DNA from: a phage
Assembly: GCA_012813795.1 (NCBI GenBank)
Contig: GCA_012813795.1_4087.1
DNA: 64,000 bases
Strand: one strand, 5' to 3'
Part shown: one piece after another, positions 8,413 to 43,191 of the stretch
How positions within the stretch are numbered: position 1 is the first letter of the stretch
How the letters are laid out: the number at the start of each line of letters is the position of its first letter
Translations under genes and position numbers: made by a program
Notes under the pieces: model-generated
Databases searched by the model: none
Seen by the model: the letters and a program-made list of their open reading frames with translations, nothing else
Told to the model about the DNA's origin: nothing

Positions 8413-8460
8413 ATAGCATAAATAAATCAAATGAATGAACGAATTTATGGAGTCCTATAC

Positions 8461-11400
8461 ATGACTAATAATTTTAAGTTTCTACCAACTAAAACGGCAG
8501 AAGCAGTACAACAGAAGCTTTTCATTAAAAGATTACCTGAATGGATGCAAGGCTTAGAAGACATTCAAAAGGTTAGTGATGATGTAATTCAACAATGGTT
8601 CAATCCAGCGGATAATGAAATCGTTGATGGATATATTGGTGATATGGGTTCTCCTGCTGCATCTGCTAAGATTTTCCTTGACGAATCAACCGTTGAACGT
8701 CAGCTATATCAATTATCAACAGCATATGTGTCTCGTAATGATGACACAAGCATTCGTTCGCTTCAATTTTATGATGATTTGGTTGGCTACATGGAACACT
8801 ATGGCACGTTAACTTCAAACGAGAGCCGTCTATTTTCTGGTAAGTTCTATTCTTGGACACCACCAATTAACCCAAACAAAATGACCAACTATAGTTCTTA
8901 TTTGTGGGATAGTAAAAATAGTTTTGGTATCACATCACCTGACTTTATTGTTATGGAACGTGGTGCTGATAACGGTAACACTTGGTCACTACAGAACTTT
9001 TGGTATACTATTGGACAAACCCTAGAAGATGGTACAGTACTAACTGCTGACATGACGCAGGATACTCGTTTTATTCGTGCACAAGCACCAATCATCGAAT
9101 ATAATAAAAACATCGAATTAATCAACTACGGAACAAATTTCCGTGGTATTGTTGACCTATTCTCTGATACAGTTAAACCAGAAGATATCGTTCAAAAGGA
9201 CGTTAACGATGGTATTCGTATCGATGGTATCATTCCACAAGATGGTATGCGTATTCTATTCACCAGTATCGGTAACGTTGGTGAAAACAACCGCATTTAT
9301 AAAGTTTTTATAAAGAAAATGCAAGATGGTTCTCGTACCTATGGTTTGGCACTAGATCCTGACGAGGAATCAGAAGAACGCCCAAGTGGTGAACCCCATA
9401 ACGGTGATGTAATTTTGGTGCGTGATGGTAATGTATATAAAAATACATCCATGTACTGGAATGGTGTTGATTGGGTTAGAGCACAAACCAAATCTGGTAT
9501 CAACGTGTTCCCACAATTCCAATTGTATGACCGTGATGGTTTCAAATTAAACGACACTACTATGTATCCATCAAGTAATTTCGTTGGATCATCACTATTT
9601 GGTTTCAAAATTAACTATAATTATGGCACTGATAAAGTATACGGTTATAATATTGAATTAGGTAATTATAATTACTACATGTACGAAAACTTTCTTCAAA
9701 GTGTTCGTTATACATATGATCATTTGGGTGTTGAAACAGAAATTTCTGGATTATATTACTATAATGTAGTTGGTAAAGATAATGAACTTCACCTTAAGAC
9801 CGATTGGGTTCGCTCAAAGGAAGATTCAAAACAATTTGTTAAACAAACACCACAAATCGAACATACTGATATGTATCGTGTATTCAATACTGTATTTGAA
9901 ATGGAAAACTTCAAAACTCCATTAGAAGGTATGTATGCATATGTCATTGAAGTTGATCGTACCTATCAATATTACAAAGAAGAACGTCAAACCTATATGG
10001 ATTGGCATGTAATTAGTGGTGAAGGTATTCAAAGTGAACGTTTCAATCGCACATTTGAATTAGCCCAGAAAATTATTGATGGTAAGAGTACTGAAATCAT
10101 TGAAATTCAAGTTGATGGTGTGGATGTAACCGATTATACACGTCATGTATATAATAACAAGGTTCAAAGCATCACTTTAGGGGAAGACGTTACTCTTAAA
10201 GATGAATCAGTAATTCAAATTAGAACATATAGCAGTACGGAAGTACCAAATAAAGAGTTGGGTGCATATGAAATCCCAATTAACTTACAAAATAACCCAT
10301 ACAACGATAATATTCTTTATATCAACCAAAGTAATTTTACATTACATTTTAAAGATATCATTCAAAAGAATATTACCAGTGGTTCAGTTGATGATTTCAA
10401 TGACTACGAAGAGCGTTTGTCTAAAGGTTTAGTAGATAACTCTGTAGGTACTAAGATTATCCAAAACGAAGCATCTATGCTACCGTTAATGGCACATTCT
10501 GCAAATGAAGACATTGACCTATTTGAATCTGTATTGTTTATGCAATCAGAGTACTTTCGTTTTGTAAACAAGTTCAATACACAAATGATTCGTTTGTATA
10601 ATGAGAACCCAGCAAACTTCTTAGCTAATAATGCTTCTAATATTGTTGATGAAATTCTAACAATTATTAATATGGGTCATGATAATACATTCCCATTCTA
10701 TTATGACAACGTGGCAAGTACTTCTGGTTTCATTCGTGCTTTTGTACCACCAACTCCACAGTTCTTAGGTATTTTAAAAGCTCACGTTCCAGAAAAAGCA
10801 ACATTTTTGAATGCTGGTAGTAAGCAAAGCTGCTATAACATCAGCCATACTGGTGCAATCACCAAAGCATACCGTGTAATTAACGGTGTTGATAAAATGG
10901 ATGACGTTATATATGAATTAGAAAATCGAATCTTCAATAGTATTGATGTTATTTTCAAAGATGAAGATTACCAACCTAAGCTAGATGCTTCTGACCTTTT
11001 CCCTACTCCGTATTTTAGAGATACAGAGTATAATGATGAAGAGAAGAAGAACTTACTACTACGTGGTTACATTAACTTCATCGCAACCAATGGTATCAGT
11101 AACAGTTCGCATGATTATGATCCAAATAACTGGATGACTTGGAATTATACTGGAACTTATTACATTGTTAATGGTCAACAAACACAAATACCAGCACGTG
11201 GTTCATGGCGAGCAATCTACACTGACCAATTTGGTACATATCGCCCAGCAACCCATCCGTGGGAAATGTTTGGATTCTCCCAACGTCCGGTTTGGTGGAA
11301 CCAAGAGTACGAACCAACAGCAGTTCAAGTTGGTGAACGCGACAGTGATGTTGTTTATGTATATGAGGCATTGGTTCTCAACGAACAAGGTAACATGGTC

Positions 11401-14400
11401 CCTAGTGGGTTGTGGGATGTTGGTAATGAGAAAGGTGATAGCTCAACTGGAACTATCTTATTTGGTGCACGTAAAGGCCAATATGACAAGTATAAACGTT
11501 TTGGTACACAACCATTCAAGATCACCAAAACAGGCAAGCAGACTGCTTCTGGTGTTGATATTTGCGTTATTGAGTACATTGCACCTGAAGTATTAGGTCT
11601 TGTTTATGGTAGTTTGAATCATCGTGCTGAACCTTGGACCTATGGTGACATGGGTGACATGGAATTCACATACATGAACACCTCAATGTTCGCATATGAT
11701 GAATTAATGTTGTTATTCAAAGCTAAACCTGCACAATTCACCAACTATTTCTGGAATACTCGAAATAATACATTAAAAACTGTATCTGGTAACGAACCAC
11801 AGTTTTTATATGGTGATACTCGTTTACGTTTGAACTTTAACAGTGATACAATAGTACATGGTGAGAATAGCACTCGTGTTATTGGTTATCAAATGATTGT
11901 TAGTAACTATTTGATGTATCAAAACAAAAACATCACTACTAAGTACGGTGAAGTTGTTCGTTCTTCTCATATTAATGTTGGTCATAAACTAGGTGGATTC
12001 ACTAAAGCTGACCAATTAACATTTACGTCAGAAGCAACTGGTCTAATTTCACAAGAAAACCAATCTATCGGGTTAGTTCGTTCTAATAATATTAGAAATG
12101 AGCAAATGAGTGCAATTAAAATTACTTGGACTGGTAGTGCTTACCAAATTGATGGTTATGATTTAGTTTCTGCAACATTCAATTATAAATTGCCTGTTAA
12201 AAACGGTCATAAAGTAACTTTGAAAGTTGATAATCGTAATGTTGTTCATTATAATGAGTGGAAAAATGATGCATCAATCCCTTACGGAACTTTGATGAAT
12301 ACATTCCAAGAAGTTTACACATTTATTTGTGGTTATGGTGAGTATCTCAAACAACATGGTTGGATTTTTGAAGAAGTTGATGAATCTGGTATCCAACAGG
12401 ACTGGAATACAATTGCAAAAGACTTTTTAATCTGGAGTCAACAACAATTGAGTACTGGTGAATTCATTTCATGTACTCCATCTGCAATTAAAGCCAAATT
12501 TGGTACAGATTTTGGTTCAGTACAGTCAATTACACAAAATAGTGGTGGTGTTTGGTCACTATTAGATGATTCAAACCAAGGTATCCGTCAATTTGAGATT
12601 GAAACATCTCGTATTGGTAATATATTCACGGTGAGAACTACTGAAGAATCAAATAAACGCATGGCACTTATTCGTTTAAGTATCAGTTCATATGAACATG
12701 CTGTTATTTTTGATGATCAGACTATTTTCGGTGACTATATCTACGAACCAACCTATGGTGCAGTTCAAGAATTGATTAAATTGTATGGATATATCACTGG
12801 TTCATGGTCTGGTCGCTTACAAGCTCCTGGATTTATCATCCTAGAAGCTGGAACATTACCATCATTTGAAACATTGGTATCAAATTTCCAACAGTATTAT
12901 GATAATGAAACTCCAGTTAGTGATGTTCAATTGAATGAACTATCAAATCACTTAATTGGTTATCAGTCTCGCGATTACTTACAACGTATGATCACCAACG
13001 AGCCTGGTAGAATTGATTTCTATAAAGGTTTCATCCACGATAAAGGTACTAACCAAGTACTAGAAAAAGTACTACGTGTATCTAAATCATATAATACTGA
13101 TGAGTATAAAGCATTACAAGAATGGGCATTCCGAGTTGGTTCTTATGGTAACATTGATGGGGTTAAAAATCTTCAATTTAAACTAATTAATAATGAGTTT
13201 AAACAACAACCACAAATGATTTCGTTTGACCGCTATGCTGATAAGGTAGAGTCAGAGAATGAGATCGTATATTATGGTGAAATTGGTGAAGATTCACGCT
13301 GGATTAGTCGTCCTAAAGGTAAATTCTCATTACCTATGCGTAGTGGAAGAAGTGAGAACATCCAATTACCTAATATTGGCCCAGTAACCTTAGATGAAAT
13401 TGATTATACCACATTGAATTATGAAACGGCTAATCAAGATCGCATTAGTTACACGAATAACTTTGGCAAAATACCAACATCTGTTTGGATGTTCCAAGAT
13501 ATTAATAACGAATGGAATATATATGATTTGGTAGACACTGGTATTACAATGGTTTCCATTACACCAATAGAGAATAGCGACCCATATGCTGAGCAATATT
13601 GTAAAGTACTATTGTCTGATGACATCCCACTAATGGATGGTGATTATTACTATTTCGTTGATGAAACAAACTTTATGCCTGACGCACTACGTGAAGAAGG
13701 TCAATATTACACTTCTGGACTAAATCCAAAAGTTATGGTTGTGCCATTTGACACTTCTATCACTATTGACTTCTCAACTGTAGAATCAGCACCACGTTTG
13801 TATCGTTATGTTAGTAGATTCAGCACTCAACAAGAACGTGATGATTATATTGCTAAAAAATACAGTTACAGTGCACCTGAAAGTACTTTGTTTGACCGTC
13901 CTACTACGTATGATGAAAGAACAAACATCACTGCATTGTATTTGAATGTGTTTGACCCAATCAATGGTGTTATTCCTGGTGTAGCAATGCAAGATGTTGA
14001 TTTCATCTCCCCTGTTGATCCAGCACAATATAGCAGTAATGGTGAACTATTACAAGCATGGGGTGCTGAAAAGGTAGGTAAGGTATGGTGGAACACTAGT
14101 ACTGCATTCTATCTGGATTATACCCGTCCAATCTTTGATGAGGATGGAAACGTTGATGTAAAAGCAACTAATGAATATAAGCGTTATAATTGGGGTAAAT
14201 TATTACCACACAGTGTTATTGATGTTCTAGAATGGGTTAGTTCACCAGTAGAACCATACAACTGGGAAAAATATTGTGCAGAACAAGCCAATAAAAATAA
14301 AAACAACACCATGTATCTCCCAAGTGGGGTTGCGATGGATGATAACTATAGTTCATCTATGGAATATGATCCAATCACCGATACATATGTAGTTCGTTAT

Positions 14401-17400
14401 TATTTCTGGGTTCGTAATACAATTTATGTTCCACCAATGACTACTCGTAGTAAGTCTTGTACTGATATTGCACGTATTATTCAAGATCCAACACAATTGA
14501 ATGTTCCTTGGTTTGCACCTATTAACGAAAATAGTTTCATTCTAAGTAATATGCAATTTGAAGTTAATGATGATACAAGCATTTTGACAATTTCATATAG
14601 AAATGACAATATTGAAGTCCTGAAGCATGACCAATATCAACTTTGTAAAGAAGGTGATAGTTATGACTTTAACCCAGATATTTGGAATTCTCTATGGAAC
14701 TCACTAATTGGTCAAGAAACTACTTCAACTGGTGTTGTAAATGAAATAGTTTATCCTAAAGTTGAAACTGGTTTGGGTTCTAATAAAACTTGGTTCCAGA
14801 ATGTTATTGAAGCTCGTCGTGCGTTTGTTGAGAGTGCTAATAACTTTTACCGTTCACATAACATCACAACTAACAGTGTTGTTATGAATGATGTCTTTAA
14901 TGTTAAAACATTAAAAATGAACCCGAATGATATTACATTCCGTGTTCTATCATTTAACAATGAATTGGTAATTGCACCAGAAGACAACCGCTTCAAAGAG
15001 AATGATGCAGTATTTGTAAGTTCCATTGGAACATTACCAGCACCATTATCTTCAAGTTCTGTATATTTTGTTCACATTGATCCAAATGGATACATTCAAT
15101 TGATGAACAGTCCAAGCACAGTTGGTAGTACTGTCACAATCACTCTAGAAAATAGAGGCGAAGGTCAACACAAGATGATTAAACAAGCTGACTTCATTGA
15201 ATCACTTGGTACATCGTTGGATATGACACAGTACTGGAATCTAGCTGATTGGTACGATACTGGATACGATAGTAACACTGAATATACACAAGAAGTTAGT
15301 TTAGATGACGCAAACACTAAAAATTACCAAATTGGTGATATTATCCGTGTAACTGATAGTGATGGCGTTTGGACATTATACATCAAGACTGCATCTCGCA
15401 ATAATGTATACTGGAGAGCTATTGGACGTGAGAATAGTACTGTTGAATTGAATTCAATGTTATATTCTAGTTACAATGTTTATAATGATGATGGTTCTTT
15501 GAATTCTCATGAGGTTAACGTTCGTAATGCGTTAGCGTTGTTGAAAAATTCATTCGATTTATATCAAAGTAATATTGTATTTGATATGGTTAAGTACGTG
15601 CACACTGAACAAAGTGTTGTTGATTGGGTATTCAAAACCTCCTATATCTATATCGTAGGTTTGGAGCAATCACTAGTACAGAACTACTCAAATGACAACT
15701 TGATTAATCAAATTGTTGAGTACTTCGAGGAAGTTAAACCATACAGAACCAAAATCCGTTCTCAAATCGAACAGAAAACTTCTGATGATGATTTGATTAA
15801 TGGTATTAGTAATGACCTTGACCCAGATGGCTATATTTTAGTTGATGGTGTGTGGGTTAAGACTGAAAAAGACATTTGGGATTTAGAATATGCACAATTC
15901 AATGATGTAACTCAACGTTGGGAAAAGATTGGTTCACTACCAAGTGACTTTATCACACCTAATAGACGATTCCAAGAAATAGACGTTATTATGCATTATG
16001 ATAATATTCAATGTGAACAGTATGATAGTAATTATACAATTGATGAGTTGAAATCAACCAATAGTAAGTATCAATCCAACGAGGCTGATGTAGGTAATAA
16101 TTATGAATTACAGAGATATGTTTATACATTCCCTGAATATGATAATAATACCTTAATTTCACAAATTGGTATTGAAATGACTACCAAATATTCAGATTTG
16201 GATATTAGTAATGGTGTTATTAAAGGAATTGATGCATGGTATAAAGCACATTCAACTGATATCGCATCAACTGACCAATTTACTACTGATTTGGAGCAGG
16301 TAACTGCTGATACAAACAATAGTAATATTTTAGAAGATGTTAAAAAATATATTCAATATAATACATTAGCAACTCGTGTGAAAATGTTTAATAATATATC
16401 TGATGATATGGTTTCTAATGAGATTGGTTGTCCGTTTAAGGGTACAAACTATAATGATAATCCTAATACTCGCCTCCCATTCGGGTTTAGTGCAAGTAGT
16501 GATTATAACTATGGTTATTTTGAGATTAGTATTGAACTATATGAAAAATATGTCGATATGATCAAGAAAAATCACCCAGAGTTTACAAACGAAGACCAAA
16601 TTCGTAACATTCTTGAAATAGAATATGGTGTTTATTGCTACAAGTATGATACCACATTAAATGACCGTTATTATTCTGATACCGTTCATGTTTTATCTGC
16701 TATGCGACAAACATTTAATAAGAATATTCTAGATCATTATTATGTTGCTAGAGAAATCTTAAGTAATCGTTCAGTTGAGAAGTATGCTTTTGTTATGATG
16801 CCAAGAAAGTATGTGTATGTTGTGAATGCGGCGGGTGAATATCTACCGATTCCTGAAAGTTACAGCATATCTGATTTCATGGAAGACTTGTTCATAACAA
16901 CCGGAGAATCAGTTGTATTGGCTGAAATTGATTTAAATGATTTACCACAAGACCAGAATAATCCTATGTATTCTGCATACATTGAAGTACTGGAAAGTAT
17001 TAATACCGCGAAATATTTCAATGATATGAACGCATTCGATAACTTGGCATTGGAATCACAAACCAAGTCCATTAAATGGGAAGTTAAAGATAGTGAGATT
17101 GATCCTTATATCATCGACATTTCTGAACTAAACCCATCAGGAAGAACAATGGCACAATTGCGTTTCACTGTTGATGGTTATGGTTTCGATGAAGTTGCTC
17201 AAGAGCAATTAAAAGACACGAGTAGATTCCAAATTGAGGGTATGATCGTACAGAACCCTTACAATATGTCAGAAGCAATTGTAAGTATTCCATCATATGA
17301 TATTGTCATCGAGAATATGGGTAAAGATGTGTTTAAAGATTCAGAAAAATACTTCTTCCCAATTTCAGAAATTAAAACAATTACTGAAATCAAGGTTCAT

Positions 17401-18438
17401 GATGAAGGATTGAAAAATGGTGATAAGGTTGTGATTTTCACACCAGATGGTGAAGATTATGTACGATTCCAAGATGGTGAATGGGTAACTATACTAAGTG
17501 CTAGTAAAATCCAAACCTCCAAAAAACCAAAACTGTACACTGTGCGTGTATTGGGTAACGGAAACGTTGAGTTGGTTGATGGTAACGGTGTTGCATTGAT
17601 GTTTGATAGTGTAACTAAGCGTGAAAGTAATGAGCGTTTTTATACATTATCAATGAACTTAGTTAGAATCCGCACTTTCCAAGACCCTGAGTTTGATGAC
17701 AATGGCCTTAAACTATATGAAAATAATCGTCATTATAGTATACATGCATTGAACTATGAAGTATTCTATGACGAAACATTATATGGTGGTAAATTCAATG
17801 ATGGTATCACATCTGATGAGATTGATTTGTGGTTAGTTTCCAATGAGATTTTTGAAGTTGATGGTATTACAATTGATAATGGTTATAATCAACCAATCAC
17901 TGGTAAAGGTGTTCTAGGTGAACTAGTACGAGCTAAAATGACTGATGGTATTGAAATCACTGTATTTGAATACGATGTTGATGTTATTCAACCAGTACTA
18001 AGTTATGATCGCGTGTGGCAGTATGCACAACCAGTGGTCAATAACACGTTCATCAAAGAGGTAGGATGTAATGTTATTAACATTACAACTGTTGAAGATG
18101 AGGCAATCACTTATGTTGCTAAACCTCGTTCAATAAGCCCATATATCATTACTGATTCAGTACTGTCAGGTGCTGCGGCACAGAATGATGATATTATTGT
18201 GGTTGGATATGAGAAGGTTCAGGTAAGAAATACTGATCGTCTATTACGTGGTGTCATGTATAGTGCGGAGCATAATTTCACAAAAGGAACTTCTTATAGC
18301 TTCAATGGATTGAACTTAGGAAGCATTGATAAGTTTACTCAATATCAAAACTTCTATCCACCAATTCCATTAGAGACATTCAGAAATGGATTGTCAATTA
18401 CTGGAACCGATATCGAAAAACTTTTGAATATTCAATAA
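8461..18438 (+). CDS. giant virion-associated structural protein (about 3300 aa), function unassigned
   Basis: Single uninterrupted ORF; ORF track begins at ATG 8431 but ATG 8461 has a GGAG RBS and lies downstream of an ATAAATA late-promoter-like box (8418-8424). Last gene of the baseplate operon, followed by a strong terminator. Confidence 0.6.
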   Translation: MTNNFKFLPTKTAEAVQQKLFIKRLPEWMQGLEDIQKVSDDVIQQWFNPADNEIVDGYIGDMGSPAASAKIFLDESTVERQLYQLSTAYVSRNDDTSIRSLQFYDDLVGYMEHYGTLTSNESRLFSGKFYSWTPPINPNKMTNYSSYLWDSKNSFGITSPDFIVMERGADNGNTWSLQNFWYTIGQTLEDGTVLTADMTQDTRFIRAQAPIIEYNKNIELINYGTNFRGIVDLFSDTVKPEDIVQKDVNDGIRIDGIIPQDGMRILFTSIGNVGENNRIYKVFIKKMQDGSRTYGLALDPDEESEERPSGEPHNGDVILVRDGNVYKNTSMYWNGVDWVRAQTKSGINVFPQFQLYDRDGFKLNDTTMYPSSNFVGSSLFGFKINYNYGTDKVYGYNIELGNYNYYMYENFLQSVRYTYDHLGVETEISGLYYYNVVGKDNELHLKTDWVRSKEDSKQFVKQTPQIEHTDMYRVFNTVFEMENFKTPLEGMYAYVIEVDRTYQYYKEERQTYMDWHVISGEGIQSERFNRTFELAQKIIDGKSTEIIEIQVDGVDVTDYTRHVYNNKVQSITLGEDVTLKDESVIQIRTYSSTEVPNKELGAYEIPINLQNNPYNDNILYINQSNFTLHFKDIIQKNITSGSVDDFNDYEERLSKGLVDNSVGTKIIQNEASMLPLMAHSANEDIDLFESVLFMQSEYFRFVNKFNTQMIRLYNENPANFLANNASNIVDEILTIINMGHDNTFPFYYDNVASTSGFIRAFVPPTPQFLGILKAHVPEKATFLNAGSKQSCYNISHTGAITKAYRVINGVDKMDDVIYELENRIFNSIDVIFKDEDYQPKLDASDLFPTPYFRDTEYNDEEKKNLLLRGYINFIATNGISNSSHDYDPNNWMTWNYTGTYYIVNGQQTQIPARGSWRAIYTDQFGTYRPATHPWEMFGFSQRPVWWNQEYEPTAVQVGERDSDVVYVYEALVLNEQGNMVPSGLWDVGNEKGDSSTGTILFGARKGQYDKYKRFGTQPFKITKTGKQTASGVDICVIEYIAPEVLGLVYGSLNHRAEPWTYGDMGDMEFTYMNTSMFAYDELMLLFKAKPAQFTNYFWNTRNNTLKTVSGNEPQFLYGDTRLRLNFNSDTIVHGENSTRVIGYQMIVSNYLMYQNKNITTKYGEVVRSSHINVGHKLGGFTKADQLTFTSEATGLISQENQSIGLVRSNNIRNEQMSAIKITWTGSAYQIDGYDLVSATFNYKLPVKNGHKVTLKVDNRNVVHYNEWKNDASIPYGTLMNTFQEVYTFICGYGEYLKQHGWIFEEVDESGIQQDWNTIAKDFLIWSQQQLSTGEFISCTPSAIKAKFGTDFGSVQSITQNSGGVWSLLDDSNQGIRQFEIETSRIGNIFTVRTTEESNKRMALIRLSISSYEHAVIFDDQTIFGDYIYEPTYGAVQELIKLYGYITGSWSGRLQAPGFIILEAGTLPSFETLVSNFQQYYDNETPVSDVQLNELSNHLIGYQSRDYLQRMITNEPGRIDFYKGFIHDKGTNQVLEKVLRVSKSYNTDEYKALQEWAFRVGSYGNIDGVKNLQFKLINNEFKQQPQMISFDRYADKVESENEIVYYGEIGEDSRWISRPKGKFSLPMRSGRSENIQLPNIGPVTLDEIDYTTLNYETANQDRISYTNNFGKIPTSVWMFQDINNEWNIYDLVDTGITMVSITPIENSDPYAEQYCKVLLSDDIPLMDGDYYYFVDETNFMPDALREEGQYYTSGLNPKVMVVPFDTSITIDFSTVESAPRLYRYVSRFSTQQERDDYIAKKYSYSAPESTLFDRPTTYDERTNITALYLNVFDPINGVIPGVAMQDVDFISPVDPAQYSSNGELLQAWGAEKVGKVWWNTSTAFYLDYTRPIFDEDGNVDVKATNEYKRYNWGKLLPHSVIDVLEWVSSPVEPYNWEKYCAEQANKNKNNTMYLPSGVAMDDNYSSSMEYDPITDTYVVRYYFWVRNTIYVPPMTTRSKSCTDIARIIQDPTQLNVPWFAPINENSFILSNMQFEVNDDTSILTISYRNDNIEVLKHDQYQLCKEGDSYDFNPDIWNSLWNSLIGQETTSTGVVNEIVYPKVETGLGSNKTWFQNVIEARRAFVESANNFYRSHNITTNSVVMNDVFNVKTLKMNPNDITFRVLSFNNELVIAPEDNRFKENDAVFVSSIGTLPAPLSSSSVYFVHIDPNGYIQLMNSPSTVGSTVTITLENRGEGQHKMIKQADFIESLGTSLDMTQYWNLADWYDTGYDSNTEYTQEVSLDDANTKNYQIGDIIRVTDSDGVWTLYIKTASRNNVYWRAIGRENSTVELNSMLYSSYNVYNDDGSLNSHEVNVRNALALLKNSFDLYQSNIVFDMVKYVHTEQSVVDWVFKTSYIYIVGLEQSLVQNYSNDNLINQIVEYFEEVKPYRTKIRSQIEQKTSDDDLINGISNDLDPDGYILVDGVWVKTEKDIWDLEYAQFNDVTQRWEKIGSLPSDFITPNRRFQEIDVIMHYDNIQCEQYDSNYTIDELKSTNSKYQSNEADVGNNYELQRYVYTFPEYDNNTLISQIGIEMTTKYSDLDISNGVIKGIDAWYKAHSTDIASTDQFTTDLEQVTADTNNSNILEDVKKYIQYNTLATRVKMFNNISDDMVSNEIGCPFKGTNYNDNPNTRLPFGFSASSDYNYGYFEISIELYEKYVDMIKKNHPEFTNEDQIRNILEIEYGVYCYKYDTTLNDRYYSDTVHVLSAMRQTFNKNILDHYYVAREILSNRSVEKYAFVMMPRKYVYVVNAAGEYLPIPESYSISDFMEDLFITTGESVVLAEIDLNDLPQDQNNPMYSAYIEVLESINTAKYFNDMNAFDNLALESQTKSIKWEVKDSEIDPYIIDISELNPSGRTMAQLRFTVDGYGFDEVAQEQLKDTSRFQIEGMIVQNPYNMSEAIVSIPSYDIVIENMGKDVFKDSEKYFFPISEIKTITEIKVHDEGLKNGDKVVIFTPDGEDYVRFQDGEWVTILSASKIQTSKKPKLYTVRVLGNGNVELVDGNGVALMFDSVTKRESNERFYTLSMNLVRIRTFQDPEFDDNGLKLYENNRHYSIHALNYEVFYDETLYGGKFNDGITSDEIDLWLVSNEIFEVDGITIDNGYNQPITGKGVLGELVRAKMTDGIEITVFEYDVDVIQPVLSYDRVWQYAQPVVNNTFIKEVGCNVINITTVEDEAITYVAKPRSISPYIITDSVLSGAAAQNDDIIVVGYEKVQVRNTDRLLRGVMYSAEHNFTKGTSYSFNGLNLGSIDKFTQYQNFYPPIPLETFRNGLSITGTDIEKLLNIQ

Positions 18439-18440: not shown

Positions 18441-18476
18441 AAAAAGGAGAGCCAATGGCTCTCCTTTTCTTTTTCT
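18441..18476. terminator. bidirectional rho-independent terminator between convergent giant gene and clpA
   Basis: AAAAA GGAGAGCC-AAT-GGCTCTCC TTTTCTTTTTCT; A-run upstream and T-run downstream. Confidence 0.8.
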
Positions 18477-20761
18477 TACACTACAGATGGGGTTTTAACT
18501 TGACGCTTTGGTTTGATAGCCAATTTGCCGTTAATTACATCAAATGTTACGTTTCCACCATTTACCAGAGAACCACACAGCATTTCTTTAGCCAGAGGAA
18601 CACGGATATTTTGTTCAATGGTACGTTTCATTGGACGTGCACCCATTCCAGGCTGAACACCATTTGCTTCTAACCATTCACGGGCCGCTTTAGTAATAGT
18701 TACTTTCACGCCACGTTCTTTGATTTGTTCATTTAGACCAGCCATGAACTTATCGATAACACTTTGGATAGCTTCACTAGATAGCTCATTGAACTTCACG
18801 ATACTATCGATACGGTTTAGGAATTCAGGTGGTAGGAAAGCTTTCACTGCTTTCTCTTGTGCAGTTTCACCACCACTTAAACCCAGACTGCGTTTGTTTG
18901 CATCTGCTGCACCTAGGTTGGTAGTCATAATAACTGTTACGTTGTTAAAGTAAACAGTTTTACCTTGAGAACCAGTTAGATGACCTTCATCCAGAACCTG
19001 TAGGAAGGTTAGCAGTACTTTAGGGTGAGCTTTCTCAATTTCGTCCAGAAGTAGGACAGCATTTGGGAATTGCTCAATCTTATCCAACAGTAGACCATTA
19101 CCAGTGTCATGACCAACATAACCTGGAGGTGAACCAATTAGTTTTGCAACGGTATGTTCTTGTGAAAATTCAGACATATCGAAGCGAATCAGTTCAGACC
19201 CCATTGCATCTGCTAGTGCTTTGGTAATTTCAGTTTTACCAGTACCAGATGGACCGACAAACATGAATGCACCTTGAACACTTGCTTTCTCACGCAGACC
19301 TGCACGGGCAACCATTACGTTATCTACCAATTTCTCAACTGCTTCTTCTTGACCGAATACACGGCTACGAAGTGCTGCTGGTAGTGACTTCATGCGTTCA
19401 GTTTCAGTACATGCCACTACGTTGATATCCAAGTTTGCAATTCCAGAAACAACTTCTTGAATTGTGCGTAGTGAAATTACGTTATCAGAATCATCACGTG
19501 AACGTTTCTTAGCTGCTGCTGCATCCATCAGGTCGATTGCTTTGTCTGGGAAGTGCTTGTTCTTCAGGAACTTATCACTCAAAGACACAATCGCATCCAT
19601 TGCTTCAGCACTGAAAGTTACGTTATGGAATTTCTCATAAGTACCTTGTAGACCATTTACAATCGCACGAGTTTCTTCAATTGTTGGCTCAACTACGTCA
19701 ATTTTCATGAAACGACGAGTTAGTGCACTATCTTTCTCGATATTTTTACGGTATTCATCGTAAGTAGTTGCACCGATTACACGAATCTCACCACGAGATA
19801 GTGCTGGTTTCAACATATTACTCATGTCCATTGAGCCGTTGCTTGCAGAACCTGCACCAACCATGATATGGATTTCATCGATGAACACGATTGTATTTTC
19901 ACGCTTCTTCAGTTCTTTGAGAAGATTATCAATACGCTCTTCGAATTCACCACGGTACTTAGTTCCAGCAGTTAGTGCACCAACGTTGAGAGACAAAATC
20001 TCAATGTTTTGTAGATGTTCTGGTACATTACCATCAACGATTGCTTGTGCTAAACCATCAACAATCTGAGTTTTACCAACACCAGCTTCACCAGTAAGAA
20101 TAGCATTCTTTTTAGTTTTACGTGCTAATGTTTCAATCAGTGCGTCCAGTTCTTTTTGACGCCCAATCATTGGGTCCAGTTTGCCATCTTTAGCCAACTG
20201 TGTTAGGTTGGTCGTGTAATCTTCAATTGATTTCTGTTTTGATGCAGGTTGTTGTTGAGCCACCTTTTTCTCCCCAGTAGGTTCATCAGCGATGCTTTGT
20301 AGGTTAATTTCAGAATCAAGAGATTCTACATATTTCTGAAGAGTACGGGCCGCTTCAGTGCGAGTTACACCCTCTTCCAACAATGCTGCTTCTAATGCAG
20401 TGTTTGGGAATGACAAACATTCAAACAGTACAAAGAATGCATCAATTGAGAAATCGTCACGTTTGAGTTGTTCGATGACAGATTTCTTAGATAGTTCTTG
20501 CATTACACGATTGACGATTAGTGTAGTGCGATTAACTTCTTCCCCCATAGTGCTGCGTGGTGCGTGTGGAACATTGGTATTTTTCAGATATTCAATCAAG
20601 CGATCACGCACTTTCGTTGCGTCAACGTTCATTGTCCCAAATACATCAATAATGCTATCCACTGTCAGCACTGTAGCACTGATGTGATCGATTGTCAAGA
20701 AAGTATGACCCATAGAGGTTGCAAGGTCGTCGCTGCTTTTGAATAGCTGTGTTAAATTCAT
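18476..20761 (-). CDS. clpA: ATP-dependent Clp protease ATP-binding subunit ClpA homolog (two-ring AAA+ unfoldase)
   Basis: 761 aa; N-domain, D1 Walker A GEAGVGKT and Walker B IVFIDEIH, D2 Walker A GPSGTGKT and Walker B LLLDEIEKAH, and a hydrophobic-Gly-Leu tripeptide (KRSLGL) at the position of the ClpP-docking loop; alignable with bacterial ClpA over full length. RBS GGAGAG upstream. Confidence 0.9.
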   Translation of the reverse strand: MNLTQLFKSSDDLATSMGHTFLTIDHISATVLTVDSIIDVFGTMNVDATKVRDRLIEYLKNTNVPHAPRSTMGEEVNRTTLIVNRVMQELSKKSVIEQLKRDDFSIDAFFVLFECLSFPNTALEAALLEEGVTRTEAARTLQKYVESLDSEINLQSIADEPTGEKKVAQQQPASKQKSIEDYTTNLTQLAKDGKLDPMIGRQKELDALIETLARKTKKNAILTGEAGVGKTQIVDGLAQAIVDGNVPEHLQNIEILSLNVGALTAGTKYRGEFEERIDNLLKELKKRENTIVFIDEIHIMVGAGSASNGSMDMSNMLKPALSRGEIRVIGATTYDEYRKNIEKDSALTRRFMKIDVVEPTIEETRAIVNGLQGTYEKFHNVTFSAEAMDAIVSLSDKFLKNKHFPDKAIDLMDAAAAKKRSRDDSDNVISLRTIQEVVSGIANLDINVVACTETERMKSLPAALRSRVFGQEEAVEKLVDNVMVARAGLREKASVQGAFMFVGPSGTGKTEITKALADAMGSELIRFDMSEFSQEHTVAKLIGSPPGYVGHDTGNGLLLDKIEQFPNAVLLLDEIEKAHPKVLLTFLQVLDEGHLTGSQGKTVYFNNVTVIMTTNLGAADANKRSLGLSGGETAQEKAVKAFLPPEFLNRIDSIVKFNELSSEAIQSVIDKFMAGLNEQIKERGVKVTITKAAREWLEANGVQPGMGARPMKRTIEQNIRVPLAKEMLCGSLVNGGNVTFDVINGKLAIKPKRQVKTPSVV

Positions 20762-20800
20762 GTTCTCTCCTATGTGATTCTTCTCACTGTCATTAAAATC

Positions 20801-20828
20801 ATTATATCACATTCTTTCAGTTTGTCTA
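20801..20828 (-). promoter_or_regulatory. sigma70-like promoter upstream of clpA (TAGACA-N16-TGATATAAT)
   Basis: Minus strand reads TAGACA, 16-nt spacer, extended -10 TGATATAAT; about 35 nt upstream of the clpA RBS. Confidence 0.6.
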
Positions 20829-20869
20829 CCTAGTAAATACAGATATACCGATTTATTTTGGAGAACAAA

Positions 20870-22366
20870 ATGGCATACAGAATGTGGAAAAAAGGTAGAA
20901 CCAATGATTATAAATTCATAGATTCTGCCATTGCTGAACAATACAATATTGGTGGCGTAGACATGTGGCTTTATGCCTTTGTCGGTGCTAAACCATCAAC
21001 AACTCCTAACGACTATTCTTACGGTGGTGATTATATCACTGATGGTTCCGCTGCGTCAAGTATTGGTGACCTAATTTTTGGTGAAACCTCAAATCGTAGT
21101 TACAATCTAGAGGCTATCACACTTAGTTGTGTTTATCAAGTACAAGAAGCAACACCTGATTTAAAAATTCCTGGGTTGTTCTTTAACTTCAACACAATGG
21201 ACATTACAGTTCATTATAACACAATGATGCAGCGATTGGGAAGAAAAATTATGCCTGGTGATGTAATTGAACTTCCAAACCTTCGTGATTTCGATGTTGT
21301 TGGTAAAGATTCAGGTTTAAACCGTTTTTACGTAGTTCAGGACGGCTTTAGAACATCTGAAGGTTACTCTGCAACATGGCAACATCACATTTACAAAATT
21401 CGTGTCAAGCCTATTACCGATTCACCTGAGTACGCGGACTTACTTACTAATAATGATTATCCAGACAACCCAGATGACCCAAATAATGGTAATGGTAACA
21501 GTGGTTCTAATGGTTCTTCACCAAACAGCAGTTATGATAACGAAATGGATATCATGAACCGTATTATAATGCAAGCTGATGATGAAGTCCCTTATATCCA
21601 CTTCACAAATGAACATATATACGATGATAGACCAGATACAACCGATTTGTCAAAGTTTGTTCTTAATGGATATGACTTCCCAGAAGAACCAGCTAACAAA
21701 ATGTACTTCTTGAAGAAAACTTTACCAGTACTGAAAGAGAAAGTCAACAATTCATGGGAAAATGTTTCAGTACCATATGGAACAACGTTTCCACGTAAAC
21801 CATCTGATGGTGATTTCTTCTATAAAGAGAATGATTCAGATGTTACGGGATATTCCCTGTATCAATATGACAAATCTGTCAAAAAGTGGCTCAATTGTGA
21901 TGTAGAATACTCAACAGGTGATGTTCCACCTAAAAATGCTGAAGATTTTTACATTCAATATGAAAAACCAACAATGTACCAGTACTTAGATGGTACATGG
22001 CAAGTTCCACCAGATACACATGTTAACTTACCTTTCAGTTCTAACAGTGTATATGGTAACATAGACTCGCAACAAGATTCAAGACCTAAAATTCCACCTG
22101 CTCGCGGCACTGTGCAAGAAGGGGACACGTTCCCATCTGATCCTACTGATGGTGAATACTTCTATCGCACGGATTACAACCCTGTAACTCTTTGGGAATA
22201 CAGTGAAGTTAAAAAGTCTTGGGTAATCTTTGATTATGGTGGACGTAAACCGTGGGAAGGTGCTGATTTGGCCCTAACCGAGTTCGTTAACAGTCCTAAT
22301 CGTGTCCCATTACACGACGCGGCAAAACCAAACACTCTATACCGTGCAAAAGGGGATAAAGAATGA
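20870..22366 (+). CDS. putative tail fiber-associated protein with two tail-fibre-repeat-like modules
   Basis: ORF track start 20858 is TTG; ATG 20870 has a GGAG RBS. Two internal repeats (TFPRKPSDGDFFYKENDSD...KKW and TFPSDPTDGEYFYRTDYNP...KKSW) resemble the phage tail fibre repeat family. Confidence 0.5.
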   Translation: MAYRMWKKGRTNDYKFIDSAIAEQYNIGGVDMWLYAFVGAKPSTTPNDYSYGGDYITDGSAASSIGDLIFGETSNRSYNLEAITLSCVYQVQEATPDLKIPGLFFNFNTMDITVHYNTMMQRLGRKIMPGDVIELPNLRDFDVVGKDSGLNRFYVVQDGFRTSEGYSATWQHHIYKIRVKPITDSPEYADLLTNNDYPDNPDDPNNGNGNSGSNGSSPNSSYDNEMDIMNRIIMQADDEVPYIHFTNEHIYDDRPDTTDLSKFVLNGYDFPEEPANKMYFLKKTLPVLKEKVNNSWENVSVPYGTTFPRKPSDGDFFYKENDSDVTGYSLYQYDKSVKKWLNCDVEYSTGDVPPKNAEDFYIQYEKPTMYQYLDGTWQVPPDTHVNLPFSSNSVYGNIDSQQDSRPKIPPARGTVQEGDTFPSDPTDGEYFYRTDYNPVTLWEYSEVKKSWVIFDYGGRKPWEGADLALTEFVNSPNRVPLHDAAKPNTLYRAKGDKE

Positions 22367-23715: not shown

Positions 23716-24180
23716 ATGAATGAGGCAGTAGGAGCAATATTTTTATCTAAAAGTACTGGTCATATGATGCTCAATCTTAGATCTGAAAGCAGTACCTATT
23801 CAAACAACTGGGCTTTTGTTGGTGGAAAACTCGAATACAACGAATCCCCTTTGCAAGCTTTACATCGTGAAATACGAGAAGAATTGGGAGATTCGTTACC
23901 TGATATAATTGATATTATACCCTTTGATGTATTTTGTACAAAGAATGGTAAGTTCAAATATTATTCTTTCGTTGTTGTTGTTGAAAATGAGTTTGTTCCT
24001 ATTCTCAATAAGGAAAGCTCTGGATATGCTTGGGTTAAAATTGGCTCATGGCCTAAACCACTACACCCTGGAGCTAAAAACACTTTATTAAATGTTAATT
24101 TGATGAAAGATTTTTATTCTTTGTGGGAAAGTATAAACGCTGGTACGCAATTTGTCAACAGCCTACCATATAGATATTAA
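23716..24180 (+). CDS. Nudix hydrolase
   Basis: Canonical Nudix box GGKLEYNESPLQALHREIREELG (G-x5-E-x7-REUxEExGU); RBS AAGGAGGA upstream; followed by a bidirectional terminator. Confidence 0.8.
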   Translation: MNEAVGAIFLSKSTGHMMLNLRSESSTYSNNWAFVGGKLEYNESPLQALHREIREELGDSLPDIIDIIPFDVFCTKNGKFKYYSFVVVVENEFVPILNKESSGYAWVKIGSWPKPLHPGAKNTLLNVNLMKDFYSLWESINAGTQFVNSLPYRY

Positions 24181-27687: not shown

Positions 27688-28056
27688 ATGGCAGTTTTTT
27701 CTAACTTTGAAGGGACAATTTTACACAAACAATCTGGGGGTAAATATGTAGTAACAGTAGCTGGTGCATTCGTAGGAAAATATGAACAGCTTAAAGCAGC
27801 AGTAGTTGGTGCTAAAACTATTAGAACACATAACACTGCATGGGGTACAAACCAATATGCTAAAGCAGCAGGTACAAGAATTGTAATTCCTGGTGCTGGT
27901 GAAAATGGAACTGATCTCCACACTCATATAACACGAGCTACATACGTGGTCAACTCGGTATTTTGCATTGATATAGCAGACGAAATAAAAACTGCTTTCC
28001 CTGATGAGACTCCATTGTTAGCCGAATCCCCAATTACATACATTACACTTCCATAA
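27688..28056 (+). CDS. hypothetical protein sharing an N-terminal decapeptide with the next gene
   Basis: 122 aa; begins MAVFSNFEGT, next gene begins MAVFSNLEGT; RBS AAGGGGGA. Confidence 0.5.
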   Translation: MAVFSNFEGTILHKQSGGKYVVTVAGAFVGKYEQLKAAVVGAKTIRTHNTAWGTNQYAKAAGTRIVIPGAGENGTDLHTHITRATYVVNSVFCIDIADEIKTAFPDETPLLAESPITYITLP

Positions 28057-40378: not shown

Positions 40379-41854
40379 TTACGAACGTTGGCGTTTTTTG
40401 TCCGCTTCATATTCGTAGTGAACAGTTTCACCAAATGGTGCTACTTTGTTCGGGTTACTGTGGATTACAAACAGTGTTTTACAGTAGTTAGGATCACCCC
40501 ATGACTGCCACGGTTCACCATCGGTAAACATGATAAGCTGCTTAGGCTTATAATTGTCATGCTTCATGTGAACCCAAACTGCTTCAAAGTCAGTACCGCC
40601 ACCACCTTTAACTGGATATTCAAGAATCTTACGTTCTTCACCAGTTTTATAATCCATCACAGTATAAACTTCAGTATCAAATGTCATGATACGAATTTTA
40701 AACTGCTTGAATTGTTTAGTGATGCCTAGTACTTCACTGATGAAATCGCGAAGCATATCTTCACTGATAGAGCCTGATGCATCGAGTGCAATTGCAATAT
40801 CAATATCGTCATCTGGTTTCATGCCTGGGAAGATTGGATTCCCATAGAATGAACCGTTAGAACCAAAACCAGCACCCCACGAACGGCGGCTTGGGCTTTG
40901 ATAGGTCGCATCGGACTTCAACCAACTACGAAGAGTACGTTGAAGTTTAGAACGCCAGTCAATTTTTGGTTCTTTAAAGTTATTGATCATACGAGCGATT
41001 TCAGCAGGAGTACCACCTGCACGAGCAGCATTCATCATTGCTGTTTTGAAATCGTCCATGTATTCACGTTTTTGTGCTTCAGATGCACCACCTTCACCAC
41101 CTTCACCATCTTGTGGTACATCGTGTTGGTCAATGGTAGTGCCTTTGCCTTTACCATTTTGGATATCACCAAAAGTACCGCGTGATTTACCTTCACCTTC
41201 ACCACTACCAGATTGTGGCTGACCTTCACCTTCATCTTGATCTTGTTTATCTTCTTCTTCTAGAAGAATATAAATCTCTTCGGCGGTCATACCATCATAC
41301 TTCTTATCATACAACCATTGACTTTGAATCTTACCAATTTTTTCACGAACAATAATTTGGTTGATTGCGTAGTCTGCTGCACGGTTGTAGCGTTGTGGGT
41401 CACGCATACCACGACGAAGGAAGTGATCGTATGCACAGTGAAGAATTTCATGACAGATAACTGCAATCAGGTTTTCATCAGTCAAACCTTCGGTCATTTC
41501 TTTCAATTGTTCTTCAGTTACTTCAGGATGCTTCTCACGAATTGCTTCTTCGTATGCTTCTTTCTTGCTTGGGTCTTGAATACCCATGATAAATTCTACG
41601 TTATAGAATAAATGTTTACCATCTACTGCTAAGGTACGACACCATGTATTGTTTGCAACTGGACGCAGACGTGAAGCCAGTACACCAAAGAATGGAGCAG
41701 TTAACATCAGAGAAGTACGAGCAAGAATCAAACGGTCTTGGCATTCTTTCTGGAGTTGTGGTGTTACGTCGCTAAATTTCTTATCGGACATGATATTTCC
41801 TCGTTTAGTTAAGATAAAAGAAGGATACCATGTGGCATCCTTCTTGTCAAACAT
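40379..41854 (-). CDS. von Willebrand factor A (vWA) domain protein with N-terminal HExxH metallopeptidase-like domain
   Basis: 491 aa; HEILH zincin-like motif (VICHEILHCAYDH) in the N-terminal half; MIDAS-type DxSxS motif (ALDASGSIS) in the C-terminal half; Gly/Glu/Gln-rich linker; RBS AGGAAA. Confidence 0.75.
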   Translation of the reverse strand: MFDKKDATWYPSFILTKRGNIMSDKKFSDVTPQLQKECQDRLILARTSLMLTAPFFGVLASRLRPVANNTWCRTLAVDGKHLFYNVEFIMGIQDPSKKEAYEEAIREKHPEVTEEQLKEMTEGLTDENLIAVICHEILHCAYDHFLRRGMRDPQRYNRAADYAINQIIVREKIGKIQSQWLYDKKYDGMTAEEIYILLEEEDKQDQDEGEGQPQSGSGEGEGKSRGTFGDIQNGKGKGTTIDQHDVPQDGEGGEGGASEAQKREYMDDFKTAMMNAARAGGTPAEIARMINNFKEPKIDWRSKLQRTLRSWLKSDATYQSPSRRSWGAGFGSNGSFYGNPIFPGMKPDDDIDIAIALDASGSISEDMLRDFISEVLGITKQFKQFKIRIMTFDTEVYTVMDYKTGEERKILEYPVKGGGGTDFEAVWVHMKHDNYKPKQLIMFTDGEPWQSWGDPNYCKTLFVIHSNPNKVAPFGETVHYEYEADKKRQRS

Positions 41855-41865
41855 TCTTTTAGTTA

Positions 41866-43191
41866 TTAACCAAGAGAACGTGCTTTGCGTACTAGGTCAG
41901 AGTACTTCATAACGAAGTCTTTGAACGCTGGAACATCTTTGTACGCAATCGCTACCTTATGTTGAGTGATGGTACGAATTGCTAGTACTGCCAGTTCTGC
42001 CTGAGTTTCGGAGAAGTTACGGTCCAGGAAGGTGATGAAGTTGTTGCACAGCTTGCCCCACTCTTCAACTGGAAGACGTTGTTCTTGCTTCTCATTGTAC
42101 AGGTCGATAATTTTATAAACCAGATTCAGAGAGATGAAGTAGTTCGCAGAAATATCCAGCGTTGCATCAATCTCTTTAATCTCACCCTGTAGGATGGACA
42201 TAGTATCTGGTAGTTTAGATACGTTTTCTACGTATTCGATATATTCAGTTGCTACACCTTCACCAACACGACCAGCGATTAGAGCACGGAACACTTCTTT
42301 ATCAATGTTGTTGCCTTTCTTCAGGTCTTCGTAGCGTGCTACTGCTTCCCATGAACGTGGAGAAGTACCACCACTGTGAGAAGGATCTTGTGGGCTAAGG
42401 GTGTTGAAGTACTTAGCACCAGTGTTGTTGATGAACGCAACAGTACCTGGGTTCAAACGCTTAGCAATCGCGTAATCGTCAATCCAATCTTGATGGTAAG
42501 GAACCATTTCGATGTGGGTCATACGGTCACGTAGTGGCGTTGCCAGAGAGAACGTTACGCCGCCATCAGTTTCACGGTTACCTGCTGCGAGAATCAGTGC
42601 AGTCTTAGGTAGCTTCATCTCACCAACACAACGGTCGAGGATTAGCTGATAAGACGCTGCCTGTACAATCGGCATAGCAGAGTTAATTTCGTCAAACAGG
42701 ATAACACCTTTCCAATCTGGAGACAGTTTCAGTACTTTAGGTGCTGCCCATACAACTGCTGTTTCAGCAATGTAATCTTTAGCTGTTTCCAGTTCAGATT
42801 CAATCAGTTGTTTGCCATCCATATCCAGGAACACTTTTTCAGGGACTGGGATACCACGTAGGTCACTTGGTTCAATCTGTGACAAACGGAAGTCGATGAA
42901 GTTAGTGTCTTGGTCAATCAGTTTTGCTTCAAACGCTGCCAGTTCGCGGCGAAGTGCATCAGCATTTTCAGCATCAACTTCAATTTGTTGTTTCATGAAC
43001 TCGATTTTAGCCAAGTTATCCTTACGAAGAGGATAGTTCTCGTCAGCGTATTGACGTGCAATCGCAGACTTACCGATACCAGGGCTACCCCAAATCATCA
43101 GACTGTCCTGAATTTTATCTGCCAGAGCCATAGCCATTTTTGCTTTCTTAGGAGTCAGTTTTACGTTCAGGATATCTTGTTGTTCGCTCAT
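41866..43191 (-). CDS. AAA+ ATPase, MoxR/CobS-like
   Basis: 441 aa; Walker A GSPGIGKS, Walker B ILFDEINSA, sensor region LILAAGNRETDG; immediately upstream of the vWA gene (the classical MoxR-vWA pairing). Confidence 0.8.
   Translation of the reverse strand: MSEQQDILNVKLTPKKAKMAMALADKIQDSLMIWGSPGIGKSAIARQYADENYPLRKDNLAKIEFMKQQIEVDAENADALRRELAAFEAKLIDQDTNFIDFRLSQIEPSDLRGIPVPEKVFLDMDGKQLIESELETAKDYIAETAVVWAAPKVLKLSPDWKGVILFDEINSAMPIVQAASYQLILDRCVGEMKLPKTALILAAGNRETDGGVTFSLATPLRDRMTHIEMVPYHQDWIDDYAIAKRLNPGTVAFINNTGAKYFNTLSPQDPSHSGGTSPRSWEAVARYEDLKKGNNIDKEVFRALIAGRVGEGVATEYIEYVENVSKLPDTMSILQGEIKEIDATLDISANYFISLNLVYKIIDLYNEKQEQRLPVEEWGKLCNNFITFLDRNFSETQAELAVLAIRTITQHKVAIAYKDVPAFKDFVMKYSDLVRKARSLG

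Follow-up and report, generated by a model that had tools for sequence, protein, structure and literature searches.

The stretch of DNA analysed here, 64,000 nucleotides of the phage contig GCA_012813795.1_4087.1 (hereafter the window), carries within its tail and baseplate genes, on the opposite strand, a gene for a protein resembling the bacterial unfoldase ClpA (hereafter clpA). Its closest match is Escherichia phage A4 (96% identity), an Asteriusvirus belonging to the Rak2/121Q-like jumbo phages of enterobacteria. What would a virus do with such a protein, and with which peptidase would it work? A first-pass annotation of the window, made from the sequence without database searches, saw in the gene an island acquired from a bacterium. 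The comparisons described below correct this framing: clpA is not a stray bacterial moron, but one of three conserved Clp genes that are scattered through the phage genome. Probably its product is a functional unfoldase of the ClpA type that is made ahead of the late genes and forms, with a phage ClpP and a ClpS-fold adaptor, a phage-encoded protease.

The ClpA-type protein and its motifs

A single open reading frame (ORF) with an ATG start spans positions 18476–20761 on the minus strand (stop codon 18476–18478), and encodes 761 amino acids. Its best Pfam matches are AAA_2, AAA, AAA_lid_9 and ClpB_D2-small, the second AAA+ ring (D2) scoring 170 bits for AAA_2 and 77 bits for ClpB_D2-small. Among NCBIfam models, that of ClpA (TIGR02639) is the best match, with 761 bits (E 1e-228, model positions 5–733 of 734), ahead of ClpB (636 bits) and ClpV (535 bits). 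The score is nonetheless under the ClpA equivalog cut-offs (761 bits against 993 for TIGR02639, and 654 against 1350 for NF008263), and I therefore call the protein ClpA-type, or ClpA-like, and not an equivalog of bacterial ClpA, even though ClpA is its best-scoring family. The phage profile phrog_4871, labeled ‘ATP-dependent protease’, also matches over the full length (1007 bits, E 1e-302, residues 2–755 on profile positions 11–760 of 764).

The closest solved structures are those of E. coli ClpA (PDB 1ksf, E 9e-180), which align end to end over residues 17–741. The structures of ClpB, ClpC and Hsp104 align in two separate stretches, as do the ClpB and ClpV models, because the phage protein has no M-domain. 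Indeed, a global alignment to E. coli K-12 ClpA is colinear without insertion, and the coiled-coil M-domain that ClpB and ClpC possess between the first ring (D1) and D2 is absent. Sequence identity in this alignment is 42.6% overall, with 23.7% for the N-domain, 51.5% for D1 and 46.2% for D2. The phage protein has in common with E. coli ClpA (PDB 1ksf, 6w1z and 7uiv) the N-D1-D2 organization lacking an M-domain, an IGL-type loop, and Walker A and B motifs, pore loops, arginine fingers and sensor-2 that are identical or conservatively substituted. It differs by a 4-residue deletion at E. coli residues 19–22, by a linker 11 residues longer, and by the lack of a methionine equivalent to the internal start M169. 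With ClpB, ClpC and ClpV it shares two AAA+ rings and the Clp N-domain fold; however ClpB and ClpV possess no IGL-type loop, and the phage protein does. As judged from its sequence, it is an intact ClpA-type double-ring AAA+ unfoldase, with a Clp N-domain and without an M-domain, and the first-pass annotation, which had described a full-length unfoldase with its N-domain and both rings, holds on this point in the ORF, the TIGR02639 match, the E. coli ClpA alignment and the N-domain model.

The N-domain (residues 1–158; positions 20288–20761, on the minus strand like all features of the gene) matches Pfam Clp_N (PF02861) below threshold, with E 0.0013 and 19.3 bits for a cut-off of 20.7. An AlphaFold model of residues 1–175 has a mean pLDDT of 81, with residues 159–175 disordered (pLDDT below 50). 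When this model was submitted to Foldseek, the top 50 PDB matches were all N-domains of ClpC, ClpA, ClpB or Hsp104, with moderate TM scores of 0.57–0.71, and that of E. coli ClpA (1r6o_B) gave 0.66 at 21% identity. Because the Clp_N match is sub-threshold, yet the model matches solely Clp/Hsp100 N-domains, the predicted structure indicates an N-domain that is real but divergent. It is followed by a flexible linker (residues about 159–178; 20228–20287), which shows low conservation in the phage clade and includes the 11-residue insertion relative to E. coli.

The two AAA+ modules were annotated by alignment to E. coli ClpA. D1 (residues about 179–445; 19427–20227) contains the Walker A motif GEAGVGKT (residues 224–231), the pore-1 loop KYR (residues 268–270), the Walker B residues D295/E296 (FIDEIH) and the arginine fingers R349/R350. 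D2 (residues about 446–745; 18527–19426) contains the Walker A motif GPSGTGKT (residues 503–510), the pore-1 loop GYVG (residues 547–550), the Walker B residues D573/E574 (LLLDEIEKAH), the sensor-1 residue N615, the arginine finger R650 and the sensor-2 motif GARPM (residues 707–711). The catalytic and pore residues of D1 are invariant in an alignment of 12 clade sequences and at least 98% conserved in one of 112, and the D2 motifs are likewise conserved in both. The pore-1 loops (AGTKYRGEFE and SPPGYVGH), whose role is to grip the substrate (PMC9663308), are the same as in E. coli ClpA at key residues. On careful alignment all motifs are intact, and the loss of Walker or ClpP-loop motifs that the first-pass annotation had allowed for is not seen.

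The feature that points to a peptidase is the tripeptide LGL (residues 626–628; 18878–18886), at the position of the ClpP-docking loop, where it aligns with I617-G618-L619 of E. coli ClpA. The hexapeptide KRSLGL (residues 623–628), which had been singled out from the sequence alone, does align with RKSIGL, the E. coli IGL loop. Such loops (residues 610–628) dock in clefts of ClpP (PMC9663308). Among the 112 clade ClpAs, position 626 is L, I, M or V in 110 and G627 is kept in 94, with position 628 being mostly M, L, V or F.

ClpP and ClpS-fold proteins of the phage

It had been noted from the sequence that neither clpS nor clpP lies next to clpA, and this is borne out by tblastn, which found no ClpP or ClpS homologue in the 64-kb window. 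The whole A4 genome was then examined for such partners. They are present, at dispersed loci: ClpA is encoded at ~178 kb, ClpP at ~88 kb, and a ClpS-like protein at ~263 kb.

The protein A4_455 (~88 kb) is a true ClpP, matching PF00574 with 143.7 bits (E 8e-42) and 37.8% identical to the E. coli enzyme. Its triad, S113/H139/D188, aligns with that of E. coli ClpP, and it possesses a C-terminal extension of about 17 residues. Across 64 ClpPs of the phage clade the triad and oxyanion residues are invariant, and a set of conserved substitutions is clade-specific and absent from the bacterial matches: V44K in all 64, L114G in 61 of the 64, F82N/S, and R192E/K/Q. These four positions lie in what I take to be the ATPase-docking pocket. 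The retained docking tripeptide and the clade-specific ClpP pocket fit a dedicated ClpA-ClpP pair, without proving it.

This bears directly on the proposal, made in the first-pass annotation, that the phage ClpA could redirect the ClpP proteolysis of its host. In such a hijack it would dock on E. coli ClpP and, through its divergent N-domain, steer proteolysis to new targets, or would compete with host ClpA and ClpX for ClpP. A hydrophobic-Gly-hydrophobic loop is kept, LGL replacing IGL between similar flanks (KRSLGL and RKSIGL), host ClpP is plentiful when infection begins, and the window itself has no clpP. However, the same genome encodes a triad-intact ClpP, whose distribution covers the same phage records (about 70), and the clade-specific, conserved changes to the pocket of this ClpP suggest that it has a dedicated partner. 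With a ClpP and a ClpS-fold adaptor of the phage's own at hand, hijacking of host ClpP is the less likely mechanism, and I regard it as unlikely.

The putative adaptor, A4_74 (~263 kb; 13162–13707 of locus L010), is annotated as ‘protease adapter’ and gives a marginal Pfam ClpS match. The only PDB matches of a profile built from 17 sequences of its family are chains of ClpS, the best at E 1.6e-5, and comparison with E. coli ClpS by hhalign gives 88% probability over the core, which is about 30% identical. At the residues that presumably line the N-degron pocket, the alignment shows N34D, D36P, M40A and H66N relative to E. coli ClpS, with D35 and T38 kept. The N-terminal 65–70 residues or so are predicted to be folded (three strands and helices; pLDDT 78–91). 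In E. coli ClpS, there is instead a disordered extension, which enters the ClpA pore and is needed for hand-off (PMC9663308). The extra N-terminal domain of A4_74 has no recognisable structural relative in the PDB. The A4_74 gene lies immediately after a gene for an IF3-like translation initiation factor, with a 15-nt gap.

Three other A4 proteins were considered alongside these. Some orthologues of A4_455 are named ‘head maturation protease’ in RefSeq, but a role in capsid maturation is unlikely, since a separate T4-type S77 prohead protease (A4_8, PF03420, ~213 kb) sits between the portal and scaffold genes. A4_467, annotated ‘ClpP/crotonase-like’, was rejected as a second active ClpP, as its triad is lost in the alignment (N/L/I) and its Pfam match is marginal; this degenerate ClpP-like protein (45219–45824 of locus L006) has a hydrophobic, signal-peptide-like N-terminus, and is encoded about 7 kb from the true ClpP. 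For A4_469 (‘protease’), a Pfam search gave no informative family match. In virions of phage CBB one ClpP peptide was reported (PMC5259590), which is too weak to interpret.

The three proteins have closely similar distributions. Of the records in the phage collection, 72 contain the ClpS-like protein, 70 a ClpP of at least 60% identity, and 69 the ClpA locus, with near-identical host genera for all three: Escherichia, Klebsiella, Salmonella, Erwinia, Yersinia, Serratia, Cronobacter, Pectobacterium and Xanthomonas. A ClpA identical to that of the window is deposited at NCBI as an ‘Escherichia coli’ protein (EON7637220.1) on a 357,761-bp contig that also encodes a ClpS-like protein (EON7637136.1), and a ClpP identical to that of A4 (EON7637332.1) belongs to the same accession series. 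More generally, identical ClpA, ClpP and ClpS-like proteins are found under the name ‘Escherichia coli’ on contigs of about 350–358 kb, from which it follows that jumbo-phage genomes are present within bacterial assemblies under bacterial names.

In contrast to the E. coli ClpAPS system, clpA of the phage lies outside a clpS-clpA operon, and its likely partners are phage-encoded and divergent. The separation is general, as in none of 80 viral ClpA loci is a ClpS or ClpP encoded within 5 kb of clpA. Clp sets are known from other jumbo phages: Agrobacterium phage Atu_ph07 carries ClpX, ClpA, ClpB, ClpP and ClpS (PMC6102473), and ClpP and ClpS have been noted in jumbo phages (Iyer et al., 2021, PMC7824862). 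These sets resemble that described here in consisting of bacterial-type unfoldases, peptidases and adaptors, with presumed functions in host takeover or assembly. Their ClpAs are about 38–41% identical to that of the window, among the IMG/VR matches listed. The set described here differs in being a ClpA/ClpP/ClpS trio with a degenerate second ClpP-like gene, fixed across the clade.

Inheritance and surroundings of clpA

The gene call itself adds nothing to what is known, contrary to the novelty implied at first. The A4 orthologue, A4_579, is annotated as ‘ClpA-like protein’, and orthologues are annotated in 121Q (gp581), PBECO4, phAPEC6 (gp246c), RaK2 (RaK2_00069) and many others. These are the same gene, the protein of the window being 99.3% identical to that of A4, 85% to those of 121Q and phAPEC6, 74% to that of RaK2 and 60% to that of GAP32, and the Rak2-like orthologues have the same position, orientation, promoter and terminator, with no material difference. 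ClpA has been described as highly conserved in most Rak2-like phages (PMC6102473), and listed among the AAA+ chaperones of jumbo phages (Iyer et al., 2021, PMC7824862). In IMG/VR, ClpA-type genes are common on large viral contigs, with at least 501 relatives confirmed among the 600 matched stretches listed. Literature searches for experimental, functional or transcriptomic work on these phage Clp genes found none.

The comparison with related phages, which the first-pass annotation had advised, locates the gene at the same place in all the Rak2-like phages that were examined. Six relatives agree in the order and orientation of the genes, with a giant gene convergent to clpA, and a gene of ~500 codons followed by a gp15-like stabiliser gene divergent from it. 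Relative to these phages ClpA is 60–85% identical and its structural neighbours 49–77%, and it has diverged in step with them. A deep relative, the P0114 phage contig, in which ClpA is 46% identical, retains the upstream block formed by a NUDIX gene, the gp15-like gene and a ~476-aa gene. In a neighbour-joining tree, the phage ClpAs form one clade, each about 39–44% identical to E. coli ClpA whatever its host. In database searches this clade extends to about 53% identity, followed by bacterial ClpAs at about 41%. The nearest of these, at 41–42% identity, show no affinity to the hosts among the best 120 matches, few of which are bacterial. The search for a bacterial source that had been recommended thus returned a phage clade and no donor, in a set of 120 matches too poor in bacteria to identify one; the best match outside the clade, P0114 (46%), is another phage.

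It has to be considered whether the segment is an artefact, namely a chimera with host DNA, a recent moron of host origin, or a decaying pseudogene. The antisense orientation is what such an insertion could look like, as is the GC content of clpA, slightly above its flanks (0.41 against 0.31–0.39). This excess is however located in first codon positions, reflecting amino-acid composition. At third codon positions the GC content (GC3) of clpA is 0.31, close to the 0.24–0.30 of its neighbours and far from the 0.57 of E. coli clpA. In codon usage, too, the gene follows those of the phage (r 0.83) and not those of E. coli (r 0.38). A blastn search of 5,426 complete E. coli genomes gave a sole match, of 123 bp at 71.5%, to the chromosomal clpA. 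Seven phages, each sequenced independently, have the segment joined to its flanks at the same junctions, and a Logan contig of 22 kb, likewise independent, has an identical clpA with the same neighbours. The ratio dN/dS is 0.088 against 121Q and 0.117 against RaK2, synonymous sites being near saturation. The value of about 0.09 indicates purifying selection, and adds to the intact catalytic motifs. A host chimera or recent capture is rejected by the E. coli search, the GC3 and codon analysis and the conserved junctions, and a pseudogene by the motif conservation and dN/dS, so that an artefact of any of these kinds is refuted for all practical purposes. In place of the island suggested initially, clpA is a core gene that the Rak2/121Q-like jumbo phages have long inherited vertically, and any capture from a bacterium is older than the whole clade.

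The immediate setting of the gene had been correctly described in part. It lies antisense in the tail and baseplate module, beside the giant gene, which encodes a 3335-aa protein (8431–18438, plus strand) and is convergent with clpA. With a threshold of E 0.001, no Pfam domain is recognised in this protein, and its phAPEC6 orthologue gp245 is a confirmed virion protein (382 kDa, 17 peptides). On the promoter side, however, the neighbour is not a fibre gene but that of an unnamed 498-aa protein (‘structural’ in A4), followed by a T4 gp15-like tail-sheath stabiliser (PF16724); the long tail fibre gene begins about 8 kb beyond these. The start of the 498-aa ORF was mechanically set at a TTG (20858), but translation more likely begins with the ATG at 20870, which is preceded by a GGAGA Shine-Dalgarno sequence and matches the A4 annotation.

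Location in a tail module does not imply that ClpA is a virion component. Mass spectrometry of phAPEC6 virions identified 62 proteins, including the giant gp245 and gp248, but gp246c, the ClpA orthologue (85% identical), is not among them, nor was gp247, the orthologue of the 498-aa neighbour, found in virions. ClpA as a virion component was accordingly rejected.

Three further loci of the window are worth recording. A NUDIX hydrolase gene (23716–24180, plus strand) lies within the tail module, directly after the gp15-like stabiliser, an adjacency kept in the distant P0114 phage contig (L095). A 122-aa ORF (27688–28056, plus strand) derives from A4_571 (723 aa, ‘colanic acid-degrading protein’) by the in-frame loss of ~1.8 kb; it retains the first ~10 and last 115 residues (98% identical), between flanks 99% identical to A4. 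The phage apparently lacks the A4_571 depolymerase domain, and may differ in host range. Finally, an AAA-type ATPase (441 aa) and then a DUF2201 ‘putative metallopeptidase’/VWA-like protein (491 aa) are encoded at 40379–43191 on the minus strand, and the proteins that mass spectrometry identified in phAPEC6 virions include the orthologue of this ATPase (gp265c).

Transcription and proposed role

The clpA gene has its own promoter and terminator, as the first-pass annotation had proposed. The promoter P1 (20801–20828, minus strand), 40 nt upstream of the ATG, consists of a −35 element TAGACA (20828–20823), a 16-nt spacer and an extended −10 element TGaTATAAT (20809–20801), and scores 11 out of 12 in a scan for sigma70-type promoters with an extended −10. 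A Shine-Dalgarno sequence GGAGAG (20765–20770, minus strand) lies 3 nt from the ATG, its AGGAG being kept in relatives. A bidirectional intrinsic terminator (18442–18468, both strands) lies within the 37 nt that separate the stop codon of clpA from that of the convergent 3335-aa gene. It has a perfect 12-bp stem and a 3-nt loop, with a run of A at one end and a run of T at the other (folding energy −24 kcal/mol). The numbers of promoter and terminator sites found by scanning the region are no higher than the shuffled expectation, and hence it is conservation, and not counts, that carries weight here. The regulatory elements were compared at oriented orthologous loci of A4, 121Q, RaK2, GAP32, CBB and Serratia phage BF, and TGnTATAAT, AGGAG and the hairpin are present at aligned places in all six. 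The terminator stem shows compensatory changes among relatives, GGAGAGCC/GGCTCTCC being replaced by GGGAGCC/GGCTCCC.

A second candidate promoter, P2 (21030–21059, minus strand; TTGACG-18-TGaTATAAT), also scoring 11 out of 12, is found about 270 nt upstream of the ATG, antisense within the coding sequence of the divergent neighbour. In 121Q, GAP32, CBB and Serratia BF it reads TTGACA-18-TATAAT, with an essentially unrelated spacer sequence. In RaK2 a 15-nt insertion has displaced the old −35, and a new TTGACT is placed exactly 18 nt from TATAAT. This pattern of hexamers and spacing looks like selection on the promoter itself, and P2 is a putative functional promoter. A third sigma70-like site (21213–21242, minus strand) inside the neighbour also points to clpA, and solely its −10 is kept in relatives. 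Transcripts from these two upstream sites would run antisense to the 5′ end of the neighbour gene.

The extended −10 motif TGNTATAAT is over-represented in the window as a whole, with 17 copies against 7.1 ± 2.2 expected (none of 100 shuffles reaches 17), most of them being TGATATAAT. Intergenic copies of TGNTATAAT with a TTGACA-like or TGGGACA-like −35 precede ClpA, the AAA-ATPase/VWA operon and other minus-strand genes, and P1 belongs to the same motif class as the promoters of other non-structural genes in the window. Ahead of the ATPase/VWA pair there are tandem promoters of the form TTGACA-N14-TGATATAAT, at 43359–43367 and 43453–43461 (minus strand). On the other strand, GTAAATAC, tentatively assigned as a T4-late-promoter-like motif (20833–20840, plus strand), lies about 30 nt upstream of the likely ATG (20870) of the divergent gene, and TAAATA was spotted by eye at the corresponding place in 121Q, RaK2, GAP32 and CBB. 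For CBB, ATAAATA has been reported as the late motif that precedes structural genes (PMC5259590). Of the exact T4 late motif TATAAATA the window has a single copy against 8.4 expected, which is uninformative. From these motifs I infer that the host sigma70 RNA polymerase transcribes clpA, and does so earlier than the surrounding late genes.

The promoter class also bears on a further explanation, in which ClpA is a ClpP-independent unfoldase or chaperone for virion assembly, remodelling or threading giant tail and baseplate proteins such as the 3335-aa protein. An assembly role has been suggested generically for jumbo-phage ClpA/ClpX (Iyer et al., 2021, PMC7824862). The adjacency of clpA to the giant and tail genes is strictly conserved in the clade, and partly in the 46%-identical relative, and genes resembling those of GroES and DnaJ are present in the phage as well. 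In E. coli, ClpA can act without ClpP as a chaperone of the P1 protein RepA. On the other hand, clpA is on the opposite strand to the structural genes and has a different class of promoter, most members of the clade retain the docking tripeptide, and the same phages encode a cognate ClpP and a ClpS-fold adaptor. ClpA was also not found in virions, although an assembly chaperone need not be present there. Taken together, a ClpP-independent assembly chaperone seems improbable, somewhat more so than the hijacking of host ClpP.

A protease made of phage proteins is the explanation that best accommodates these observations. Host RNA polymerase would transcribe clpA from its sigma70-type promoter or promoters before the late genes, ending at the hairpin that clpA has in common with the 3335-aa gene. 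The product would form a hexameric double-ring unfoldase, docking on a ClpP tetradecamer through the LGL loops of its D2 ring. This ClpP would most probably be the phage's own, encoded about 90 kb away, with its triad kept and a clade-specific, remodelled pocket, and the divergent ClpA N-domain would most probably receive the phage-encoded ClpS-fold adaptor. The resulting phage-private ClpA-ClpP-ClpS protease would unfold and degrade selected proteins during infection. I infer the physical pairings and the substrates of the trio, as well as the timing of its expression.

Several observations weigh against such a phage-encoded protease. LGL is close to the IGL of the host, and the phage ClpA may dock on the abundant host ClpP, or on mixed rings. 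About 16% of the clade ClpAs lack the glycine of the tripeptide in the alignment, which misalignment of the loop may explain. The assignment of ClpP positions 44, 82, 114 and 192 to the docking pocket is presumptive, and follows the E. coli ClpP literature. Given its altered pocket and folded N-terminus, the ClpS-like protein may not be a canonical ClpS. The bacterial clpS-clpA operon arrangement is absent, the three genes being dispersed in A4, and their shared distribution was compared through record counts and host genera. The timing of expression, lastly, is predicted from promoter motifs.

The phage-encoded protease could also be taken further, as a fully orthogonal ClpA-ClpP-ClpS pathway insulated from that of the host. 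Here the pocket would accept phage ClpA alone, the N-domain would pair solely with the phage adaptor, and the extra folded domain of the adaptor would replace the hand-off extension as a new substrate-recognition module. The system would be switched on early, through consensus sigma70 promoters, to destroy host defence or stress factors, or early phage proteins. I regard this extended version as tentative, and rather doubtful as a whole.

If the phage does possess a private protease, these jumbo phages would offer a tractable virus with a regulated-proteolysis machine of its own, and an orthogonal ClpAP pair for the engineering of protein degradation.

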